From: Candidatus Kaiserbacteria bacterium | GTDB lineage: Bacteria > Patescibacteriota > Minisyncoccia > Phycocordibacterales > Phycocordibacteraceae | Length of the DNA stretch: 64,000 bases | NCBI GenBank assembly: GCA_016182485.1 | Contig: JACPGH010000003.1 | Span: 70,331 to 134,330 of the forward strand | Direction: 5' to 3' | Shown here: positions 1,352 through 64,000 of the stretch, piece after piece | Layout: each line of letters starts with the position of its first letter | Position numbering within the stretch: the stretch's first letter is position 1 | Notes under the pieces: generated by a model | Databases searched by the model: none | What the model was told of the DNA's origin: nothing | The model's input: only the letters and a program-made list of their open reading frames with translations | Position numbers and translations under genes: made by a program

Positions 1352-2938
1352 ATGAACATAGCCGCGCTGGTGCAAATCAATTTTGATTTGCTATTAGTCG
1401 GTATAGCAGTTGCAGGCATTGTTCTGCTGGGGAGCATTATTTTGCTGAATGACGCAAGAAGTGTAACAAACCGCTCGTTCTTTTATTTCGCGGTACTCAC
1501 GGCCGCATGGGGCATCTCGAATTATCTCGAGTATCGCTTCACGACAATTGAAACAACATTATGGGCTCTTCGTTTTCACCTGTTTTTTTCTACTCTGCAT
1601 GCTTTCTTCTTTTTTAGACTCGCCTATGTATTTCCGCGAAAGGAACTGACGTTTCCAAGCTGGTATTACTACGTGCTGATCCCGATCGTGGCCACCACGT
1701 GCATCCTTGTGCTCACGCCACTTGTATTTTCTGGCATAACGGCGCTCGCGCCCGCCGGACAAGTGACGAGAGGCGTTCCGGGCCCAGGTATCGCGGTGTT
1801 CATGTTCGTCGCGTTCGGCCTCTTGATATCAAGCTTAGTGATTCTGTTCCGGAGAGCGCGAAAGCAGACGGGAGTTGAGCGCCGTCAGGCGCTGGTACTT
1901 TTCTACGGGATGCTGCTCATGGCCATTCTCATTCTTACATTCAATGTGGTGTTGCCGAATGTCTTCTCGAATCGAAGTTTTATTCCGCTGGCGGCCCTGT
2001 TCATTCTTCCTTTTGTGGCGTTAACCTCATACGCTATTTATCGCCACCATCTCTTCAACCTGAAAGTCGCGACGACGGCGTTCCTCGGATTCATGGTGAC
2101 GGTTTTCACATTCGTGAACGTGCTGTATTCCACCGGCCCGAGCGCGGTGGTCCTAAATGCTACGGCGTTTCTGGTCGTCTTGTTCGGAAGTATCAAGATA
2201 GTCCAGGATACGCTAAGTCTTAAAACATTGACCGAAGAGCTCTCCGAGACGAACGAGCGGCAGGAGACCCTCATCCACTTCATCGGGCACGAGGTCAAAG
2301 GATTCCTCGCCAAAGACGAAGGCGCGTTAGCGGCGATCTCGCAGGGCGATTTCGGCGAGCCGCCGGACGGCATGAAGCCCTTCGTGGAGCATGCGCTCGC
2401 GGAATCGCGCCATGGCGCGGACTCGGTAGCGAACATCCTGAAGGCCTCCAATCTTAAGAAGGGAACCGTTACCTACACAAAGGAACCGTTTGATCTTAAA
2501 GAACTTGTCGCCGCGGCCGTCGAGCGCGAGAAGACGCGGGCGGAGGAGAAAAATCTTACACTCGATTTTAAGGCTGACGAGGACTCGTACCAGATAACCG
2601 GAGATAAGGCGCAGATAAACGACCATGTGCTCCGCAATCTTATCGATAATGCGATTAACTACACGCCCTCCGGGTCTATAGAGGTTTCTCTTCGTAACGA
2701 GAACGACAGATTGATTTTCGCCGTGAAAGACACCGGAGTCGGCATTGATGAAGAAGACAAGAGGCATCTCTTCACCGAAGGCGGGCACGGTAAGGAGTCG
2801 CAGCGGGTGAACGTCCATTCCACCGGCTACGGCCTCTACATAGCGAAGAAAATAGTTGATGCGCACGGCGGGACGATCCGGGCCGAATCCGAGGGTCCCG
2901 GCAAAGGTTCAACCTTTGTCGTTGAGTTTCCAGCGTAG
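1352..2938 (+). CDS. membrane sensor histidine kinase
   Basis: N-terminal multi-TM region; C-terminal HATPase_c motifs NLIDNAINYT, DTGVGID, GYGLYIAKKIVDAHGG. Confidence 0.75.
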   Translation: MNIAALVQINFDLLLVGIAVAGIVLLGSIILLNDARSVTNRSFFYFAVLTAAWGISNYLEYRFTTIETTLWALRFHLFFSTLHAFFFFRLAYVFPRKELTFPSWYYYVLIPIVATTCILVLTPLVFSGITALAPAGQVTRGVPGPGIAVFMFVAFGLLISSLVILFRRARKQTGVERRQALVLFYGMLLMAILILTFNVVLPNVFSNRSFIPLAALFILPFVALTSYAIYRHHLFNLKVATTAFLGFMVTVFTFVNVLYSTGPSAVVLNATAFLVVLFGSIKIVQDTLSLKTLTEELSETNERQETLIHFIGHEVKGFLAKDEGALAAISQGDFGEPPDGMKPFVEHALAESRHGADSVANILKASNLKKGTVTYTKEPFDLKELVAAAVEREKTRAEEKNLTLDFKADEDSYQITGDKAQINDHVLRNLIDNAINYTPSGSIEVSLRNENDRLIFAVKDTGVGIDEEDKRHLFTEGGHGKESQRVNVHSTGYGLYIAKKIVDAHGGTIRAESEGPGKGSTFVVEFPA

Positions 2939-2989
2939 TCTGATAGTGTTTTGGCATCGTCCGCCTTTGCCAAGGCTTCGGCGAGACAA

Positions 2990-3060
2990 GCCGGTATAGT
3001 TCAATGGTAGAACGAAGGACTCATAAGCCTTAAACAATGGTTCGATTCCATTTACCGGCA
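2990..3060 (+). tRNA. tRNA-Met (anticodon CAU, elongator-type acceptor)
   Basis: Cloverleaf: GCCGGTA acceptor, GTTC/GAAC D-stem, anticodon loop CTCATAA, T-loop TTCGATT, acceptor TACCGGC + A. Confidence 0.7.
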
Positions 3061-3118
3061 CCGCGACATTTTGATAGGATTTTGGTAGGATGAAATCGTC
3101 CGCATTAAGTTAGTACAT

Positions 3119-3190
3119 GCGGCTGTAGCTCAACGGTAGAGCGCCGCCCTGTCACGGCGGAGGTCGTGGGATCATCACCCATCAGCCGCG
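3119..3190 (+). tRNA. tRNA-Asp (anticodon GUC)
   Basis: GCGGCTG acceptor, GCTC/GAGC D-stem, anticodon stem CCGCC/GGCGG with loop CTGTCAC; unusual T-loop ATCATCA. Confidence 0.7.
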
Positions 3191-3197
3191 CAGTCAG

Positions 3198-3228
3198 CAA
3201 AATCCGGCGGTGAGCCGGATTTTGCTTT
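3198..3228 (+). terminator. rho-independent terminator after tRNA pair
   Basis: Perfect hairpin CAAAATCCGGC-ggtga-GCCGGATTTTG followed by CTTT. Confidence 0.7.
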
Positions 3229-3305
3229 AAAATCTGCGAGCGTCGGCGAGCAAATTATCCCGACCAAGCCCGTCCCTCGTACCCTGGTACTGCTATGCTA
3301 TCTCA

Positions 3306-4460
3306 ATGCGGTTAACCGATTTCCATAAGGTAGTGGCGATGAACACTCTGTCTGGAATTGGCACGGGACTCGTGGGCATTTTCATCCCCATTTACCTGCT
3401 TGAGCTGGGTTTTCCTCCCATCTCCGTCATTGCGTGGCTACTAGTTCATCACGTCTCGCTTCTCATAAGCTCGTTTCTTGTCGTATTTGCATCGAATAGG
3501 ATCGGGCTTGTGCGATGCTGGTACATTCGCATCCCGCTCGTCGCACTAGTATTTTCCGGCCTTTTATTACTGCCGACACAACCGTCTCTCTTGTTTGCAG
3601 TGGCTTTCATAAGCGGGCTGGAGGCGGCTTTTTTCTGGATTCCGTACAATATCTTTACGGTACGCACGACCGACGACAAAAGCATCGGCTCTTCTCTCGC
3701 ATTTATGTCGAATGTAGGTTCTGCCGCCGGAATCCTTGTTCCGGGAATCGCCGCTCTCCTAATCGTACTTTTAGGCTATCCGGTACTTTTTTCTGTGGCT
3801 TTCGGATTCATAGTCATTTCCGTGTTTCCTGTTTTATCGCTTAGGCAGGAAAAAACTAACTTCCAATTTTCATGGACCGCCATCAAAGGTATAGCTCGAA
3901 GATATAAACGATTTATTATTCCTGAAATTTTCGACAACCTCGGCCAAGACGCGCAGGTCATATGGTCGCTATTCATCTTCATAACAGCTCTCACCATTCT
4001 CGACATTGGCGCGCTAGGTGTTATCACAGGCATCGTCGGAATGCTCGTAACCTATCTAACAGGCATATCTATTGATACGCGGAACAAGAAGGCAATCATG
4101 CGCTTCGGCGCCGTAGCGACTTCGGTCATGTGGCTTGCCTCATACGCAGTCGCCACCATTGCTCCTGCGCCGGCATTCTTATACACGGTAACCGCACTTC
4201 GAGGTTTTGCGCTTGGGATTTTCGCAAGCGCATATGGAGCTGTCATGCTCAACCGGGCCCGCAGTTCGGACGCGCAATTCTTGGTCCTGCGGGAGATCCC
4301 GACTATCCTCGGGCGGGTCGTTGTTTTCCTACTCGCGATGTTCTTCGTCTCGATCGATCGGTTCGAGCTGACTTTTTTAGTCGTAGCCGTTCTCTCTTTC
4401 TATTTCTGGTTCAATGATACCGACCCACTTCTCGCTCCACCTGTCGAGGCCCAAACCTAA
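3306..4460 (+). CDS. MFS-type membrane transporter
   Basis: 384 aa, about 12 predicted hydrophobic helices, no soluble domain. Confidence 0.5.
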   Translation: MRLTDFHKVVAMNTLSGIGTGLVGIFIPIYLLELGFPPISVIAWLLVHHVSLLISSFLVVFASNRIGLVRCWYIRIPLVALVFSGLLLLPTQPSLLFAVAFISGLEAAFFWIPYNIFTVRTTDDKSIGSSLAFMSNVGSAAGILVPGIAALLIVLLGYPVLFSVAFGFIVISVFPVLSLRQEKTNFQFSWTAIKGIARRYKRFIIPEIFDNLGQDAQVIWSLFIFITALTILDIGALGVITGIVGMLVTYLTGISIDTRNKKAIMRFGAVATSVMWLASYAVATIAPAPAFLYTVTALRGFALGIFASAYGAVMLNRARSSDAQFLVLREIPTILGRVVVFLLAMFFVSIDRFELTFLVVAVLSFYFWFNDTDPLLAPPVEAQT

Positions 4461-4498
4461 TGACGGTTCTACCATAGTCCAATAGGCCGTACTTAGAT

Positions 4499-4930
4499 TC
4501 AGTCTGAATCAAAGTTAGTTAGATACTTCTCGATCGTGTTATGGATATTCTGCAGAACATTTTCTCGTGAAGAAGATTTGCTTCTCGCTATGCCAACGGC
4601 AAAATTATACAGGTTGTGTTGAGACATCGCGAGCCACTTATTGTTATTAGACAGAAAGACCAACAAAGTCATAATAGCTATTCTTTTGTTTCCGTTCTGG
4701 AATGGATGATTTTTGATCATCAGATAAAAAAGAATACTGGCTTTGCCTATTAATCCTCTGTAAAGATGCTTTCTGCTGAATTTCGTGAATGGAGTATTTA
4801 GGCAGCTCTCAAGAATGTTAGGGAATCGCGTTCCAAAGTCTGGAATAGGTTCACTATAGGCCATTAATTCCTTTGCCAGAGTGAAAGCTGTAAATTCAAC
4901 CTCTGCCAGTGTAATGATCTTAGTCCTCAT
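4499..4930 (-). CDS. doc: Doc/Fic-family toxin
   Basis: Motif HPFQNGNKRIA matches the Fic/Doc HxFx(D/N)GNKR core; overlaps upstream HTH gene by 4 nt. Confidence 0.75.
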   Translation of the reverse strand: MRTKIITLAEVEFTAFTLAKELMAYSEPIPDFGTRFPNILESCLNTPFTKFSRKHLYRGLIGKASILFYLMIKNHPFQNGNKRIAIMTLLVFLSNNNKWLAMSQHNLYNFAVGIARSKSSSRENVLQNIHNTIEKYLTNFDSD

Positions 4931-5181
4931 TCTTCGGCGAGTTTCTTAAAAGTCTTACCGTATTCCTTAACGGCCCTTTCAACGGCTCTCTCTATTTTTT
5001 GTTTCTTTAAGGGCCCAACTAATTGCCCCAGTGCTTCTAGAAGGGCGTTCTCGGCGATGACATAGTTCCTGCCGACCTTTTCGGCCTTTAATTTGCCCCT
5101 TTTTATCCTTCTAAACACTTCAATTCGGCTTATTTGCAGGATTTTAGCGGCTTCGATAGTGGAGTAAATTCTTTTATCCAT
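4927..5181 (-). CDS. excisionase-family HTH DNA-binding protein, putative antitoxin of Doc
   Basis: 84 aa; N-terminal HTH similar to excisionase/MerR-type; translationally coupled to doc. Confidence 0.55.
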   Translation of the reverse strand: MDKRIYSTIEAAKILQISRIEVFRRIKRGKLKAEKVGRNYVIAENALLEALGQLVGPLKKQKIERAVERAVKEYGKTFKKLAEE

Positions 5182-5187
5182 AATTTG

Positions 5188-5209
5188 TATAGTAACATAT
5201 GTTACTATA
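5188..5209. promoter_or_regulatory. perfect 22-bp palindrome, putative operator of HTH-doc operon
   Basis: TATAGTAACATATGTTACTATA lies 7 bp upstream of the HTH start codon. Confidence 0.5.
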
Positions 5210-5288
5210 CGGAAACAACAGTCTCTAGGCCATACATAATGAACCTGCTGAGCAGATTCATCTGGACCGGACTGCTACTATGTAGCAG

Positions 5289-6266
5289 ATGAATCCGAAT
5301 CACCTTGCCGTACTCCGGAAGGACTTCCGTCTCGGCGATGTCGTCTCGATTGCCGAAAGCACCGAAGGCGTTTTGAATAGAAACTATATCCTTGAAACGA
5401 GCGTAGGGAAGTTTTTCATAAAACAGGTTCGCGACAAGGCGAAAGACAGGCTCCCGGCCACGGCACTTGTCGAAGAGCTGATGCGCGAACGCGGTATTCC
5501 TGCTGTGTGCATGTGTGCGACGAAAGATGCTGAGAAGTTTGCCGTGTATGATGGTGTCGCCTATTCAGTCTATCCATTCATCGAGAGTGACCGGTCGCAT
5601 AAGTATTCTCTCGCGGATTATCGGAATATGGGCATTTTGCTTGGAGAAATTCACCGAGCCGGAAGCCAGAATATTCCAGACACGCTGACGAAGCGACGCC
5701 TCAAGGTTACACCGAAAGACGATATAGCTAAGGAGCTTGTCGAGTATAAGGCGCGGATACAGGAAATGCGGCATACGGAAAAGATCGATGAAGAATTTCT
5801 TGCGTATATCGATCTCAAGCGGGCTCTCATACCTGAAGTTGATTTGGGGACGAGTCTTGCAAACGAGACTTTGACGCACGGCGATTACCATGCGGGTAAT
5901 TTGCTCATTGACAAGAAGCGCAGAAATATTATCGAAGTATGTGATTGGGAGAAGGCTTGCATGGCGCCGCGAGCATATGAGCTTGGGAGGGCCATTCTGT
6001 ATATAAGCTTTTCAGAAGGCTACGCGGAACCGAGCGGCCGAGAATCCGCATGCGAAGTGATATCCGGATACACCTCTGTATGCCCGATGAGCAGGGATGA
6101 GATCCGCGAGGGGCTCCGAGCGCGCTTGCATCATTCGGTCTGTTCGGTTTGGCTCGAACGCCATCATTACGAATTGAAGGATCCGCGGGTCGATCACTTC
6201 GTAGCTCATGAGATCCAACTCATTCGCGATTTTATTCATGGAGATTTTGCGAGTAGATTGATTTAA
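5289..6266 (+). CDS. aminoglycoside/choline-kinase family phosphotransferase
   Basis: HGDYHAGNLLID and VCDWEKA motifs (APH-family catalytic loop and DFG-like). Confidence 0.6.
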   Translation: MNPNHLAVLRKDFRLGDVVSIAESTEGVLNRNYILETSVGKFFIKQVRDKAKDRLPATALVEELMRERGIPAVCMCATKDAEKFAVYDGVAYSVYPFIESDRSHKYSLADYRNMGILLGEIHRAGSQNIPDTLTKRRLKVTPKDDIAKELVEYKARIQEMRHTEKIDEEFLAYIDLKRALIPEVDLGTSLANETLTHGDYHAGNLLIDKKRRNIIEVCDWEKACMAPRAYELGRAILYISFSEGYAEPSGRESACEVISGYTSVCPMSRDEIREGLRARLHHSVCSVWLERHHYELKDPRVDHFVAHEIQLIRDFIHGDFASRLI

Positions 6267-6332
6267 ATGTTCGTTCTATTCCCGTGCACCGCTAAGCAAG
6301 ATTGAACAATTGTTAACACATTGATTTGAATG

Positions 6333-6348
6333 GTTAACATATGCTAAC
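6333..6348. promoter_or_regulatory. near-palindrome related to the doc-operon operator
   Basis: GTTAACATATGCTAAC shares the AACATATG core with the 5188-5209 palindrome; lies upstream of the paralogous HTH gene. Confidence 0.3.
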
Positions 6349-6357
6349 CTGTCTATA

Positions 6358-6546
6358 ATGCCTAAAAATAAGGCCGTTTTGCCAGACAAGCGCTTCTTTT
6401 CGGTGGCTGAACTTGCGCATACTCTCGGCGTGAGCCGGGTGGCGGTGTTTAGGAAAATCCGCTCCGGCGCCATTCATGCGGAAAAAGTAGGCCGCGCCTA
6501 TGTCATCCCGAGAGAGGAATTTGCGGCTGCGCTCGGCGACCAATGA
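6358..6546 (+). CDS. excisionase-family HTH protein (orphan paralog of the 4927-5181 antitoxin)
   Basis: 62 aa; FSVAELAHTLGVSRVAVFRKIRSG HTH similar to the other copy; no partner toxin ORF downstream. Confidence 0.5.
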   Translation: MPKNKAVLPDKRFFSVAELAHTLGVSRVAVFRKIRSGAIHAEKVGRAYVIPREEFAAALGDQ

Positions 6547-6713: not shown

Positions 6714-8246
6714 ATGATCCTCGTACTCAATTTCGGGAGCCAGTTCGCCCATCTTATCGCGCGGCGTGTCAGGGATCTCGGCGTCAAGGCTGAGATTGTG
6801 CCGTTCGATACGCCGGCGCAGGAAATCGCGAAGCTCAAGCCGGCCGGCCTCATTCTTTCGGGCGGCCCCGCCTCGGTGCTGGAAAAAGGCAGCCCGCGTC
6901 CCGATAAAGAAATATTCACGCTCGGCATCCCAATCCTGGGCATTTGCTACGGGCATCAGGTCTTGGCGCAGATGCTCGGCGGCAAAGTGGAGAAGGGGAG
7001 AACGCGCGAGTTTGGGAAAGAAGCGCTCCTGCTTGGCGATAAACGCGGCCTGTTCTCGGGCCTTTCGCGGCGGCAAATTGTCTGGTTCTCGCATGGGGAT
7101 CAAGTCATAACATTGCCAAGCGGCTTCCAGAGAACGGCGGCAACCGCGTCCTGTCCGAACGCCGCTTTTGCAGATCGCAAAAGGAGTCTGTTCGGTATTC
7201 AGTTTCATCCGGAGGTTACGCATACCGCGAACGGGCCGCGAATGCTCAAGAATTTCCTATTTGCAGCCTGCAAGGCAAAGAAGAATTGGAGGATCGCCTC
7301 GGTCGCAAAAGACATCGTGGGTCAGATAAAGAGGGAAGTGGGCGATCAACATGTCGTCGTCGGCATTTCAGGCGGCGTCGATTCGCTCGTCGCCGCTACC
7401 CTTATTCATCGCGCGATCGGGAACCGCCTCCATGCCGTGTTCGTCGACACCGGTCTCTTGCGCCAAGGCGAGGTCGCGCAAGTTTCCGGATATTTAAGAA
7501 GGCACGGTTTCAAGAAGCTACATGTCGTCGATGCCAGCCGCGCGTTCCTCTCGCGCCTCAAGGGCGTAATCGATCCGGAACAAAAGAGAAAAATCATCGG
7601 CCATGCATTTATCGGGGCGTTTGAGAAAGCTATCCGCACCGAATTAAGGCGATACCCGATAGCCTATCTGGCGCAGGGAACCATTTATCCCGACCGCATC
7701 GAATCGGCCTCGACTTCGGGCGTTGCCGCGAAGATCAAGAGCCATCATAATCTCGCTCTGCCCGAGAAACTCGGCTTTCAGATCCTCGAGCCCCTCAAAG
7801 ATCTATACAAAGACGAAGTGCGCCGGGTCGGCCTCTCGCTCGGCCTGCCTCGCGAACTGCTCTTCCGCCATCCATTTCCCGGCCCCGGCCTCGCCATACG
7901 CATCGTGGGCGAGGTAACGGCGAAGCGCCTGCGCATAGCGCGCGAGGCGGATGCCGTCTTCCTCGCAGAACTGCATGCGGCGCGCGAGTATGAAAAGATC
8001 TGGATGGCATTTGCCGCGCTCTTGCCGGTAAAGACGACTGGCGTAATGGGGGACGCTCGAACGTACGAATATGCCATCGCGCTTCGCGCGGTAGATTCCG
8101 TCGACACCATGAGCGCGGATTGGCATAAAATTCCTGCGCCGCTGCTCGAGCGCATCTCGAGCGCAATAGTCAATAAAGTGCGAGGCGTTAACCGTGTTTT
8201 CTACGACATCACCCAGAAGCCGCCAGCTACGATGGAGTACGAATAG
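6714..8246 (+). CDS. guaA: GMP synthase (glutamine-hydrolysing)
   Basis: N-terminal class-I GATase (CYGHQ), ATP-PPase SGGVDS loop, conserved C-terminal dimerisation region ending ...MEYE. Confidence 0.9.
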   Translation: MILVLNFGSQFAHLIARRVRDLGVKAEIVPFDTPAQEIAKLKPAGLILSGGPASVLEKGSPRPDKEIFTLGIPILGICYGHQVLAQMLGGKVEKGRTREFGKEALLLGDKRGLFSGLSRRQIVWFSHGDQVITLPSGFQRTAATASCPNAAFADRKRSLFGIQFHPEVTHTANGPRMLKNFLFAACKAKKNWRIASVAKDIVGQIKREVGDQHVVVGISGGVDSLVAATLIHRAIGNRLHAVFVDTGLLRQGEVAQVSGYLRRHGFKKLHVVDASRAFLSRLKGVIDPEQKRKIIGHAFIGAFEKAIRTELRRYPIAYLAQGTIYPDRIESASTSGVAAKIKSHHNLALPEKLGFQILEPLKDLYKDEVRRVGLSLGLPRELLFRHPFPGPGLAIRIVGEVTAKRLRIAREADAVFLAELHAAREYEKIWMAFAALLPVKTTGVMGDARTYEYAIALRAVDSVDTMSADWHKIPAPLLERISSAIVNKVRGVNRVFYDITQKPPATMEYE

Positions 8247-9061: not shown

Positions 9062-9415
9062 TTATGCACGGTGATAACGGTCCGCGAGCCGTTTGATATC
9101 TTCTTCGTCGAATTCGCCGAAGGCGATTTCGAGAAGCATGATGCCGCCGGTGCCGCCGGTGACCCGGTGCGCGGTGTGACGTGGGCATGAGAAAGAATCG
9201 CCCTCGTGCGCCTCGCGCTCTGCTTCGCCGATGCGGATCGTGCCGGACCCTTTGAGCACGCGCCAAAATTCATCGCGGTTTTCGTGCGTCTGCAGGCTCC
9301 AAGCCTCCCCGGCGGCGATGGTATGTATCTTCACGGTGGTCTGCTCGTTCAGTGTGAACTGCTCGAATTCTCCCCACGGGCGCTTTACCTTTTCATGATG
9401 CGAAAGGATGTCCAT
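9062..9415 (-). CDS. cupin-domain protein
   Basis: 117 aa with cupin-like pattern (two His-containing motifs HENRDEFW...H..H). Confidence 0.5.
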   Translation of the reverse strand: MDILSHHEKVKRPWGEFEQFTLNEQTTVKIHTIAAGEAWSLQTHENRDEFWRVLKGSGTIRIGEAEREAHEGDSFSCPRHTAHRVTGGTGGIMLLEIAFGEFDEEDIKRLADRYHRA

Positions 9416-9585
9416 AAAGGAGAGTATACCTCTACTCCGAACAAAAATTGATAGAACGCGGGAATTTAGCTAGTATGCGTCTAGTGCTATTCGGGCCTGC
9501 CGCGATAAGCGTTGCTTGCACGCTTTTCTCTGGCTCGCTCGGAGAGCATAAACATGTGAGGACGCATATTTATGCTTCCTCGCTC

Positions 9586-9845
9586 GCCGAGATAGCTCAG
9601 CTGGTAGAGCAGCGCCATGGTGGGTCGCAAACCCTGCCCACGATTTTCGCAAGAAAATCGCGAATCCCGAATAACGGTCAATAGCTCCACGAGCCGAGAC
9701 CGTGGCCCGAGTCATTAGCGGGCCCGAACGACTGACAAGGGTGTCCCTTGCGGACAAAGATACAGTCTAGCCCTCTTTATGTGGTTAAAAAAAGAGGTGA
9801 AAGCGAAGGCGCAGGTCCCCGGTTCAATCCCGGGTCTCGGCTCCA
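9586..9845 (+). tRNA. tRNA-Thr (anticodon GGU) interrupted by a group I intron; encoded CCA
   Basis: 5' half GCCGAGA-TA-GCTC-AGCTGGTA-GAGC-A-GCGCC-ATGGT at 9586-9621; 3' half AA-GGCGC-AGGTC-CCCGG-TTCAATC-CCGGG-TCTCGGC-T-CCA at 9806-9845. The halves pair into a full cloverleaf only when 9622-9805 is removed. Confidence 0.6.
9622..9805 (+). ncRNA. putative group I self-splicing intron (184 nt) between anticodon positions 36 and 37
   Basis: 5' exon ends in U and the intron ends in G. Internal GACUG...AAAGAUACAGUCUAGCC resembles the group I P7/S elements (Tetrahymena AAGAUAUAGUC). No ORF inside. Confidence 0.5.
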
Positions 9846-9889
9846 AAATCAAACCCAAAGGAATTCCGCCGGCGGCAATGCAGATACAA

Positions 9890-11110
9890 CTACAATCCGA
9901 TGACCCGCATGAACTCTGCGGGAGTCGTGATGCCCTGCATCACTTTGTCTACCGCGATCTGACGCATGGCCGGATGCACTTTTGTTTTAAGCAGATCGCG
10001 CAGAGAAACAGCCGGATTGCTCTGCATCACATTCTCCTTTATCTCATCGTCGAAATGAACGACTTCGAATAGGCCGGTACGGCCGGCGTAGCCGGTACCG
10101 TGGCAAACTTCGCATCCTTTCCCGCGTTTGAGCATATATTCCCCTGCAGGCAATCCAAGAAGCTTTAGATCGCTTTCGATCGCAGGTACGTCTTCAGCGC
10201 AGGCGCTGCATATCTTGCGTACGAGCCGCGAAGAAATAACGCCGGTAAGCGCGTGCGAGACAACCGAGCGCGGGATGCCCATTTCTATCAGGCGGATGAT
10301 TATTCCGGGTATGTCAAAAGTATGGAATGTCGAGAAAACCAAACGGCCGGTCAATGCCGCCTGAAACGTCATCATTGCTGTTTCCGAATCGCGGATCTCG
10401 CCGAGCATTATGATGTCCGGATCTTGGCGCACGATTGCCCGCATGCCTTTTGCGAAACTCCACCCGATGGTCTCGTTAACTTGCATTTGGCGAAAGTCAG
10501 GAATTTGGTATTCGATCGGGTCTTCTAGTGTTATGATATTAAGCTGGGTATTATTGAGCGTTCGCAGGAATAGATACAATAGCGTCGTTTTGCCGCTCCC
10601 CATCGGCCCCGTGATGATAATAATCCCGTATGGGGAATAAATAATTTTCTTTACAGTTTCAAGCTGCTCCGGCGTAAAGCCAATGTTGTCCATAGTTTCT
10701 GCCACGCTGTTTCGATTCAACAGGCGTAGCACGACTGCCTCGCCATAAACCGTCGGAGTTGTCGACACGCGAAAGCCGACCACTTGATTGCTCTGCGGAT
10801 AGAGAAATTCGAAATGTCCGTCCTGCGGCATGCGTTTTTCGACGATATCCATCTTCGCCGAAACTTTGATAAGCGAGGTGACGGATTCGGGCGAGACTTT
10901 TTCGAACTGGCCGAGCGTGTACAGTAACCCATCGACGCGTATGCGTGCTACCATGCCGTTTGGAACCGGATCGAGATGAATGTCAGAGGCACCGAGCATC
11001 ACTGCCTGCTCTAAAATGCCTTCCAACACCGCGGAGGGATCATCGGAATGCAAGGTCATTGATTGTTCAGGTTGGGCGAGTGTAATTTCCATAGGGATAA
11101 ATGATACCAC
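9890..11110 (-). CDS. GspE/PilB-family secretion or pilus assembly ATPase
   Basis: Walker A GPMGSGKTT, Asp/His boxes, tetra-Cys motif CSAC...CEVCHGTG typical of GspE/PilB. Confidence 0.75.
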   Translation of the reverse strand: MVSFIPMEITLAQPEQSMTLHSDDPSAVLEGILEQAVMLGASDIHLDPVPNGMVARIRVDGLLYTLGQFEKVSPESVTSLIKVSAKMDIVEKRMPQDGHFEFLYPQSNQVVGFRVSTTPTVYGEAVVLRLLNRNSVAETMDNIGFTPEQLETVKKIIYSPYGIIIITGPMGSGKTTLLYLFLRTLNNTQLNIITLEDPIEYQIPDFRQMQVNETIGWSFAKGMRAIVRQDPDIIMLGEIRDSETAMMTFQAALTGRLVFSTFHTFDIPGIIIRLIEMGIPRSVVSHALTGVISSRLVRKICSACAEDVPAIESDLKLLGLPAGEYMLKRGKGCEVCHGTGYAGRTGLFEVVHFDDEIKENVMQSNPAVSLRDLLKTKVHPAMRQIAVDKVMQGITTPAEFMRVIGL

Positions 11111-60753: not shown

Positions 60754-60901
60754 GCAGAAATAATACGCCCTACTTCGCTCATTTAGGACAATGAGCTTCG
60801 AAGGGCACTGCTTCGCTTAAAAACACAAAAACCACCCGCGAGAGTGGTTTTGCGTCAGTGCCGTGCACTGCGTAGCTCGGCGTAATCGACGAGCGAAGCA
60901 G

Positions 60902-61300
60902 TGGAGGTGTCGAGAGTCGAACTCGAGTCCGAATCTGATGTTGAAAGCGCTTCTACGACGCGTAGTCGGCGTTAGGTTTAAGGCAGGATGCGAGGAACGT
61001 AGACGAAACCATTCCTGCCCGATCCCTTATCTCGATGCGCCGGGCGGGAGGCCGGACATCCATTCTGCAGATAATTCCGCCCAGTCCTCCGACTGCAAAA
61101 ACTCGAGAGGATGAACGTCGCCCGGTTAGGCCGAAGCCGTAACGTGGGAGAACGCGAAATCACCCATACCGAAGTACGGAGACTTCACGCTTGCAAGAGT
61201 GTTCTTGGCAAGTTTGGTTCCCGCCGGATTTACGTGGCGAACGGGAGTGCACTGCGTCGCGCGTCTTTCAAAGTACAGACCGTCTAAGCCGGTCACCCCC
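60902..61300 (-). ncRNA. ssrA: tmRNA (ssrA)
   Basis: 5' GGGGGUGACCGGCUUAGACGG (compare E. coli GGGGCUGAUUCUGGAUUCGACGG); 3' T-arm CUCGAGUUCGACUCUCGAG + acceptor CACCUCC pairing with 5' end incl. G3:U70; smpB directly upstream; no encoded CCA. Confidence 0.75.
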
Positions 61301-61457
61301 CTAAAATGCATTGTATCAAAATGCGCTTTAGGCGATTGGCTGGCAAATGCGGCAAAGCCCTGCGGGCGGATACACTCGTTTTTCTGCTGAAAAACTGCGC
61401 TCTCTCCTCGGCGCCGTCGCTCCTGCGGCAGTCCGTCCTCGGACTCTGCCGCATTTG

Positions 61458-61901
61458 CTACTTTGTTTTCAATAGCCGGTCGCGTTCGCGAAGGGCTTCT
61501 CGCTTCTTCAGGTCCTCGCGGCGGTCGGACTTGCCTTTACCGCGCACTATCGCGATAGCCGCTTTCACGAACCGCTTATTACTATATATCTCAAGAGGCA
61601 CTATTGTCAAGCCTTTTTTCGATTCGGCGTCGGCTAATTCGGCGATTTCCTTCTTAGTGAGGAGAAGCCGGCGCGGCCGCTCGGCGTCATAACCCTTGGG
61701 CATATTGGCCGCCTGGTAGGGAGGAATGGTCATGCCGACCAGATATGCCTCCCCGCCGCGCACCAGCACCCGCGCGCCCTCGAGCGAGCCGAGCTTACTG
61801 CGCAGAGCTTTCACTTCGGGGCCCAGAAGCTCGATTCCCGCCGAAAAGCGCGCGAGCGGCGCGTACTTTATTAATGCTTTCTTATATTCGACGAGGACCA
61901 T
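61458..61901 (-). CDS. smpB: SsrA-binding protein
   Basis: 148 aa from MVLVEYKK...; conserved SmpB core and basic C-terminal tail. Confidence 0.85.
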   Translation of the reverse strand: MVLVEYKKALIKYAPLARFSAGIELLGPEVKALRSKLGSLEGARVLVRGGEAYLVGMTIPPYQAANMPKGYDAERPRRLLLTKKEIAELADAESKKGLTIVPLEIYSNKRFVKAAIAIVRGKGKSDRREDLKKREALRERDRLLKTK

Positions 61902-63914: not shown

Positions 63915-63987
63915 GCGCGCATAGCTCAATGGTTAGAGCTTTCGGCTTATATCCGAAAGGTTCCAGGTTCGAGTCCTGGTGCGCGCA
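63915..63987 (+). tRNA. tRNA with anticodon UAU (Ile, AUA-decoding)
   Basis: GCGCGCA acceptor, GCTC/GAGC D-arm, anticodon stem TTCGG/CCGAA, loop CTTATAT, T-arm CCAGG-TTCGAGT-CCTGG. Confidence 0.55.
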
Positions 63988-64000
63988 CAGCGGAGTTAAC

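Follow-up and report, generated by a model that had tools for sequence, protein, structure and literature searches.

The stretch of Candidatus Kaiserbacteria DNA analysed here (64,000 nucleotides (nt); the window) carries, at positions 9586-9845, a tRNA-Thr(GGU) gene that is split by an insert of 184 nt between the anticodon base U36 and A37. Our analysis makes it very likely that this is a functional gene of a member of the Patescibacteria (candidate phyla radiation, CPR) and that the insert is a compact group I intron. The gene structure was read from the window sequence over 9400-10050, and all parts lie on the forward (+) strand. The 5' exon (9586-9621; GCCGAGA-TA-GCTC-AGCTGGTA-GAGC-A-GCGCC-ATGGT) comprises the acceptor 5' strand, the D-arm and the 5' strand of the anticodon stem (9612-9616), and closes with the loop bases A32, U33, G34, G35 and U36, the last of them at 9621. 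The intron follows at 9622-9805 (GGGTCG...AAAGCG). The 3' exon (9806-9845; AA-GGCGC-AGGTC-CCCGG-TTCAATC-CCGGG-TCTCGGC-T-CCA) provides A37 and A38, the second strand of the anticodon stem (9808-9812), the variable loop, the T-arm, the acceptor 3' strand, the discriminator U and an encoded CCA (9843-9845). A first-pass annotation of the same DNA had already described the two tRNA halves around a 184-nt insert, and its description proved to be correct to the base; likewise, the insertion site 36/37 with U at position -1 and G at the intron's 3' end is borne out by the sequence. Its proposal of tRNA-Thr(GGU) as the host agrees with ARAGORN, which calls the joined exons (76 nt) tRNA-Thr(ggt) with a canonical cloverleaf. 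A generic, degenerate pattern for a split tRNA-Thr(GGU) matched once in the window, compared to 0.00 matches in 100 shuffles. If the anticodon loop is left out, the exon body is best matched by an intron-less tRNA-Thr (score 38, versus 29 for Gly and 20 for Arg) in a comparison set of 403 tRNAs from the fetched loci, a set that is enriched in Thr. In its default mode, ARAGORN run on the window called neither the tRNA nor the intron of 9586-9845, and both were also missed by Rfam at the gathering threshold on the window and at E<=10 on 9500-9900 (401 bases). The locus therefore appears to be unannotated.

The secondary structure of the intron was derived from the window sequence and a MAFFT alignment; a covariance model, R1, was built, and the homologues were re-aligned to R1. 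The resulting fold displays a complete group I architecture with the paired regions P1 to P9, the P3/P7 pseudoknot and P9.0. Thus, what had been proposed as a group I-like insert on the basis of a short core motif turned out to possess the remainder of the group I fold as well, with strong covariation. In a 20-sequence alignment, 92.4% of the pair cells are standard pairs, as compared to 71.6% in shuffles and 31-43% when the partners are slid, and 45 of the 61 pairs show compensatory changes. With 100 distinct sequences, 92.5% of the cells are paired and 53 of the 61 pairs are compensatory; none of 500 shuffles reached the observed value on any of the measures. Among the aligned sequences, such pervasive compensatory changes indicate selection on the RNA fold. 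The foldability of the P3-P7 core, which the first-pass annotation had left to be checked, is supported in particular: P3 crosses P7 to form the pseudoknot, and compensatory changes occur in both helices.

At the 5' splice site, the P1 stem-loop (9619-9638) pairs the exon bases G34, G35 and U36 (9619-9621) with the internal guide GCC (9636-9638), placing a U·G pair between U9621 and G9636. This U·G pair is present in 99 of 99 sequences, and G-C predominates at the two neighbouring exon-guide pairs (96-97 sequences), with both sides changing where the host site differs. P1 is extended by pairing of GGGU (9622-9625) with ACCC (9631-9634), leaving the loop CGCAA and a bulged U9635; among the homologues these extension pairs occur as G-C, A-U, G-U and U-A. 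The P2 hairpin (9639-9662) consists of 10 pairs, one of them an A·C mismatch, and is capped by the GNRA tetraloop GCAA (9649-9652). Compensatory changes are found at all 10 pairs across the 100 sequences, and the loop L2 is GNRA-like in nearly all members.

P3 is formed by CCC (9666-9668) and GGG (9739-9741) and is only 3 base pairs (bp) long. Its cells are paired to 99%, and C-G is replaced by U-A in 1 and 5 sequences and by U·G in 4. A longer P3 including 9665 and 9742 was considered and rejected, as inspection of the alignment by eye yielded the partners U/U, A/G, G/A and U/A and no consistent pairing; for this reason P3 was kept at 3 bp. The A-rich joining segment J3/4 (GAAUA, 9669-9673) is nearly invariant in alignment A1 and, judging from general knowledge of group I introns, may take part in a triple helix. 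P4 (ACGGUC, 9674-9679, with GACCGU, 9698-9703) is paired in 100% of the cells; its outer pair changes from A-U to U-A in 5 sequences, which are phage copies. It encloses J4/5 (AAUA), P5 and J5/4 (CGA), where P5 (GCUC-CAC-GAGC, 9684-9694) is 93.8% paired with compensatory changes at all 4 pairs. The P6 hairpin (9704-9724; GGCCCG/CGGGCC with a 9-nt loop) has 88.8% of its cells paired, and all 6 pairs are compensatory.

The segment 9725-9734 comprises J6/7 (CGAAC) and the 5' strand of P7, and reads C, G, A, A9728, the bulged C9729, G9730, A, C, U and G9734. P7 consists of GACUG/CAGUC and an additional A-U pair across the bulged C. It is paired in 100% of the cells, with the outer pair being A-U in 97 and G-C in 3 sequences and the inner pair G-C in 98 and A-U in 2. 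The P8 hairpin (9742-9756; UGUCC-CUUGC-GGACA) is a plain helix with a CC:GG step, and all 5 pairs covary. It is followed, at 9757-9768, by J8/7 (AAAGAUA; 9757-9762 plus A) and the 3' strand of P7 (CAGUCU, 9763-9768), which are invariant across the family; conservation extends to the A-rich J3/4 and J4/5, besides AAGAUA in J8/7. The stretch at 9757-9768 corresponds to what RF00028 alignments of canonical introns show as AAGAUAUAGUC. Accordingly, the GACUG motif that had been proposed as the P7/J8-7 core can be assigned in full: in GACTG...AAAGATACAGTCTAGCC at 9730-9773, the 5' strand of P7 is followed by J8/7 (AAAGAUA), the 3' strand of P7 and P9.0. The guanosine site is laid out with A9728-U9768, the bulged C9729, G9730-C9767 and J8/7, all at nearly invariant positions, and the canonical group I layout marks G9730-C9767, next to the bulged nucleotide, as the putative guanosine-binding pair. 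P9.0 is formed by GC (9770-9771) and GC (9803-9804), the latter lying within 9803-9805 together with the last intron base, the terminal guanosine (ωG) G9805, and its covariation fixes the register of the 3' end. Its two pairs are paired in 98% of the cells and use 4-5 pair types, the first being G-C in 51, A-U in 36, U-A in 6 and C-G in 4 sequences and the second U-A in 47, C-G in 43 and U-G in 7. A terminal G is present in every family member collected. The P9 hairpin (9772-9797; CCUCUUU/AAAGAGG with a 12-nt loop) shows compensatory changes at all 7 pairs, the innermost pair not being real in most sequences.

A further line of evidence concerns tertiary structure. In small group I introns of bacteria, an L2 tetraloop is known to contact a receptor in P8. 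Among sequences with the L2 loops GAAA, UAAA or AAAA, an internal loop resembling a receptor (xGCUAAG...UAUGCx) is present in P8 in 47 of 61, compared to 0 of 39 with other GNRA loops, in which P8 is a plain helix with CC:GG steps; the motif was defined post hoc from the same data, and the counts carry no correction for phylogeny. The window intron combines a GCAA loop with a plain P8, which is the putative docking site of this tetraloop. The match between L2 class and P8 form is what an L2-P8 tetraloop-receptor contact predicts and, at the level of sequence, indicates a folded tertiary structure.

Homologous inserts are widespread. Scanning the GTDB species genomes for tRNA-Thr(GGU) exon features 165-225 nt apart gave at least 120 matches, with at least 18 clear homologues of the window insert and many false positives arising from adjacent tRNAs. 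Among the matches listed, the homologues are 176-213 nt long, are all preceded by UGGU and all end in G; the metagenome-assembled genomes (MAGs) containing them are labelled Kaiserbacteria, Taylorbacteria, Komeilibacteria, Paceibacterota, Parcubacteria, Saccharibacteria or 'Patescibacteria group'. A metagenome scan for the invariant core CGAACGACTGACAAGNG...ATACAGTCTA again gave at least 120 matches, and the same pattern was run on viral contigs. Of the core matches listed from the metagenome and viral scans, 115 of 127 were automatically confirmed as tRNA-Thr(GGU) split at 36/37 by introns of 169-271 nt. In total, more than 110 homologous inserts occupy the identical site in Patescibacteria genomes and metagenomes, the closest to the window in intron and exons being, among the matches listed, a Kaiserbacteria locus (L125). 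As several Patescibacteria loci (L052, L076 and L081) have an intron-less tRNA-Thr(GGU), the presence of the intron is patchy. The expectation that 184 nt would rank among the smallest group I introns holds, but smaller members of 169-176 nt exist: 176 nt in a Taylorbacteria MAG (L023) and, lower still, 169 nt in both L145 and L155. Even at these lengths, every helix is retained.

Some individual loci deserve mention. In a MAG labelled Saccharibacteria (L025), the intron and the 3' exon are intact, while the sequence upstream of the intron (around 7962-7990, - strand), where the acceptor strand and D-arm are expected, reads …GGTGGGCGGGTGAAGCAGAGC and does not resemble a tRNA, perhaps through an artefact of assembly or because the copy has decayed. 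A typical 207-nt family member in tRNA-Thr(GGU) occurs on a contig binned as 'uncultured Pedobacter' (L043). Since this contig is only 1378 nt long, it is probably a mis-binned Patescibacteria fragment and not evidence of the intron in Bacteroidota. On an 805-kilobase (kb) chromosome (L092), the Thr(GGU) intron lies 1.4 kb from a 23S rRNA gene whose match (2771-6122, - strand) spans 3352 nt as opposed to the 2925 positions of the model, which implies an insertion of about 400 nt; insertions are common in CPR rRNA genes.

Introns of this kind have already been described. Nakagawa et al. (2026, mSystems, PMC13011429) reported tRNA-Thr(GGU) 36/37 introns in three complete Patescibacteria genomes (GCA_001029635.1, GCA_016700375.1 and GCA_030583745.1), identified with the gpI_bact_tRNA model of tFind. 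RF00028 fails on these introns, and for two of the three genes ARAGORN wrongly gives Arg(GCG) with an intron at 34/35. The authors termed them 'divergent group I introns' and placed them on a long branch with IA-type tRNA introns of Patescibacteria (PMC13011429). The accessible part of the tFind preprint text holds nothing specific on Thr introns. Hence, the first-pass statement that Thr is not among the classic host tRNAs is true, but this family had already been published from the same phylum and insertion site, and the window intron is a further member of a compact intron family first reported in 2025-26. This membership is inferred from the identical host, site, phylum, detection behaviour and length. 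The window intron and the published Thr introns share the phylum, the host tRNA, the site, the failure of RF00028 and the ARAGORN mis-call; the shortest of the 333 bacterial tRNA introns surveyed in that study (184-894 nt) has exactly the length of the window intron. What differs is that the window represents another genome, and that the paper gives no structure-level covariation for the Thr introns.

The other Patescibacteria tRNA introns, at 35/36, are also inserted in the anticodon loop, and the published phylogeny groups the Thr introns with them. Unlike the Thr family, they are detected by RF00028; some of them carry genes for HNH endonucleases, and their self-splicing has been demonstrated. 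The classic IC3 introns of tRNAs (Azoarcus tRNA-Ile, Agrobacterium tRNA-Arg(CCU) at 36/37, cyanobacterial tRNA-Leu(UAA) and tRNA-fMet) resemble the Thr family in being small, lacking an open reading frame (ORF) and interrupting the anticodon loop, preceded by U at -1 and closed by a terminal G; both also have a short P1, a GNRA L2 loop docking into P8 and exons held by the anticodon stem. However, the Thr family has been placed with the IA introns (PMC13011429), its P3 is far shorter (3 bp), and its core has diverged enough for RF00028 to fail, while an IC3-type intron at the very same site (Magnetovibrio, L026) scores 39.5 bits.

Several points weigh against a functional group I intron in the window. 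RF00028 does not match the window intron at the gathering threshold or at E<=10, although the IC3-like intron in the Magnetovibrio tRNA-Thr(GGU) (L026) was scored at 39.5 bits (E=1e-8) in the same type of search; the failure is thus specific to this lineage. P7 and J8/7 are almost invariant, and most of the catalytic core is therefore beyond test by covariation. A P3 of 3 bp and minimal peripheral domains could render unaided folding and catalysis weak. In the published work, splicing was tested only for the Asn and Asp 35/36 introns and for no Thr(GGU) member (PMC13011429). Finally, our view of the genome covers 64 kb, and a second, intron-less tRNA-Thr(GGU) gene elsewhere is possible.

With regard to RF00028, the covariance-model check suggested in the first-pass annotation had a divided outcome: RF00028 itself failed, at the gathering threshold also for each of the 18 GTDB homologues, but the family model R1 matches an intron that RF00028 recognises. 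This element, L121:7667-7868 (- strand), is located 4 kb from the Thr gene of the same contig and is matched by R1 with 29.4 bits (E=2e-7) and by RF00028 with 34.6 bits (E=2.8e-7). It has the P4 sequence AUAACGGU...ACCGU in common with the Thr family and appears to be a group I intron that interrupts the anticodon loop (CUGU|...|AAA) of a different tRNA, possibly Tyr(GUA) at 35/36. Its detection by both models links the Thr family to recognised group I introns, consistent with the published phylogeny. After the L026 and L121 controls, the RF00028 negatives were rejected as evidence against a group I intron; they reflect blindness of the model to this lineage and not a missing group I fold. In addition to the exon/intron boundaries and, by covariation, the fold, our analysis thereby establishes homology to an Rfam-recognised group I intron. 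Further weaker R1 matches (23-34 bits including L121) were obtained at L181:7079-7293 (-) and L219:792-995 (+), a few kb from Thr introns on Patescibacteria contigs. In two MAGs of bacteria that do not belong to the Patescibacteria, Magnetovibrio (L026:6308-6536, +) and Bacillaceae (L048:4071-4305, +), tRNA-Thr(GGU) is split at 36/37 by introns that differ from the Thr family; at least two group I lineages have thus settled at this one host site.

By analogy with the general group I pathway, the intron is very probably self-splicing. The transcript would fold such that the exon bases G34, G35 and U36 pair with the internal guide GCC in P1, the U·G wobble marking the point of cleavage. The bond following U36 would then be attacked by an external guanosine that occupies P7 (G9730-C9767, beside the bulged C9729). 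The 2-bp P9.0 would next bring G9805 into the same P7 pocket, and the 3'-OH of U36 would attack after G9805, ligating the exons to a 76-nt tRNA with the anticodon loop AUGGUAA. During this process, the anticodon stem of the tRNA would hold the exons together and substitute for a long P10. Catalysis by the intron, its guanosine dependence and its independence of protein would be expected from the same analogy.

It might alternatively be considered that the intron is derived from group I but no longer autonomous, its core being stripped down so far that splicing would need a host or chaperone protein. This would fit the 3-bp P3, the lack of peripheral domains, the existence of members as small as 169 nt and the failure of RF00028 on the family, and for the Thr family in vitro splicing has not been reported (PMC13011429). 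We nevertheless regard this as unlikely. All canonical helices are kept, as is the co-variation of L2 tetraloop and P8 receptor; the intron encodes no ORF, and Patescibacteria proteomes are reduced. Moreover, introns of Azoarcus size are, as is generally known, robust ribozymes. Self-splicing in vitro has been reported for the related introns of Asn and Asp at 35/36 (PMC13011429).

A different identity of the gene was suggested by ARAGORN in its intron mode, which placed the ends of a split tRNA precisely at [9586,9845] and gave its intron as 184 nt, but reported the gene as tRNA-Arg(gcg) i(35,184), the intron following gene position 35. Since the intron starts with GG and ends with GCG, the sequence also permits an intron at 34/35 (or, equivalently, at 33/34) in a tRNA-Arg(GCG). 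However, a boundary at 34/35 would leave G at position -1 and one at 33/34 would leave A at the intron's 3' end, and U at -1 together with a terminal G is obtained only at 36/37. The guide GCC pairs with GGU, and this U·G pair is invariant in the 99 sequences. The two bases ahead of ωG (GC, AC, GU or AU) change in step with P9.0; they vary because P9.0 covaries, and it is these same bases from which the ARAGORN boundary makes an anticodon. Such an 'anticodon' would switch between GCG and GUG among homologues, whereas GGU is constant. The exon body is also far closer to tRNA-Thr than to tRNA-Arg (38 versus 20). A20 is a mark of bacterial tRNA-Arg, and position 20 is U in this tRNA. This very mis-call was documented by Nakagawa et al. 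(PMC13011429). A tRNA-Arg(GCG) is thus very improbable, and from the sequence Thr(GGU) with an intron at 36/37 is preferred. Least credible of all is a tRNA pseudogene, interrupted by the remnant of a dead intron or by some unrelated insertion that stays in the transcript: the locus escapes standard annotation of tRNAs and RNA families, and another Thr(GGU) gene could exist in the unseen part of the genome, but the exons are perfect, both splice-site nucleotides are invariant, and many Patescibacteria classes have kept the insert at this one site, where compensatory changes are pervasive. An archaeal-type bulge-helix-bulge intron was rejected in view of the site (36/37 and not 37/38), the bacterial host with a transfer-messenger RNA (tmRNA) in the window and the group I fold.

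Relatives of the Thr(GGU) introns also occur in phages. The core pattern was present in seven IMG/VR contigs (L250-L256), with no copy in a tRNA and R1 scores of 84-140 bits; the lineage of the Thr introns is therefore not confined to tRNA genes. An exact 17-mer of J8/7-P7 gave 0 matches in the viral contigs, as it was too specific and included variable P9.0 bases, and in a BLAST search of the whole locus against phage genomes the matches were confined to the tRNA exon segments. The contig L253 (IMGVR_UViG_3300020570_000137; its sequence also equals the metagenome contig L136) contains three copies within 1.5 kb (6280-6469, 6746-6935 and 7569-7752, with model-predicted U/G boundaries; R1 121-127 bits), and the same three introns in the same arrangement are found in L256. 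Excision of the three L253 introns at the predicted boundaries restores a single frame of 447 codons, which supports that these boundaries are real splice sites. There is a weak match of this frame to a 'major head protein' in PHROG that spans the first two junctions (E=1e-5), and the putative capsid gene is flanked by a portal/adaptor gene on one side and a major tail gene on the other. The guide sequences of the three introns differ, each fitting its own exon. Other copies are located at L254:8330-8534 (-), L255:1867-2070 (-), L250:4401-4605, L251:3091-3289 and L252:2503-2712 (-). The L255 intron interrupts a capsid gene homologous to that of L253, but at another position, and the L254 intron interrupts a further capsid-like ORF. 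The copies in L250 and L252 adjoin ORFs in whose translations GIY-YIG- and LAGLIDADG-like endonuclease motifs were read by eye. The phage introns have a catalytic core near-identical to that of the Thr introns and a guide adapted to each exon, but they differ in their host, a protein gene (putatively for the major capsid protein), in the presence of three copies in one gene and in the outer P4 pair, which is U-A instead of A-U.

It might be speculated that the Thr(GGU) introns constitute a distinct, naturally minimal group I lineage (169-271 nt, a 3-bp P3, no peripheral domains, invisible to RF00028) with a near-identical catalytic core common to Patescibacteria tRNA genes and phage structural genes. 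We put this forward tentatively, and with somewhat less than even confidence. If true, it would imply ongoing exchange of introns between phages and CPR hosts without an intron-encoded homing endonuclease, and would offer a ribozyme scaffold smaller than that of Azoarcus.

The surroundings of the gene are those of a bacterial chromosome. The window contains guaA, a PilB/GspE ATPase gene, prfB, ftsE/ftsX, pyrG, seven ordinary tRNAs and a tmRNA. The named relatives of the neighbouring PilB all belong to Parcubacteria/CPR (Doudnabacteria with 61% identity, followed by Paceibacterota, Liptonbacteria and Taylorbacteria), which assigns the host to the Patescibacteria, and the same strain is present in three Logan assemblies (SRR12113420, SRR12113422 and SRR12113385). 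Synteny was uninformative: on contigs with PilB homologues, the nearest relatives are about 64% identical, the gene order is not conserved and no tRNA-Thr is located nearby. A promoter scan was equally uninformative (1 site, 0.5 expected). The tmRNA, at 60899-61300 (-), is standard (90.7 bits). Overlapping it, ARAGORN in intron mode predicted a 'tRNA-Pro(cgg) with a 795-nt intron' (60901-61773, -), probably a ghost arising from the tRNA-like end of the tmRNA. At 63915-63988 (+), the window encodes a tRNA-Ile with the anticodon UAU (74.6 bits) instead of the usual CAU/lysidine tRNA-Ile2, which is an uncommon bacterial means of reading AUA codons.

The tRNA-Thr(GGU) gene of this Kaiserbacteria member is missed by default tRNA finders and Rfam and called Arg by intron-aware ARAGORN, by which tRNA complements and completeness estimates of CPR genomes are distorted. 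As regards RNA biology, the family ranks with the smallest group I introns in nature (many members measuring 169-184 nt). It is a candidate minimal ribozyme, for which an alignment of more than 100 natural variants and a secondary structure supported by covariation are now available. The occurrence of the same core in phage capsid genes, finally, bears on the question of how ORF-less introns spread and persist in reduced genomes.

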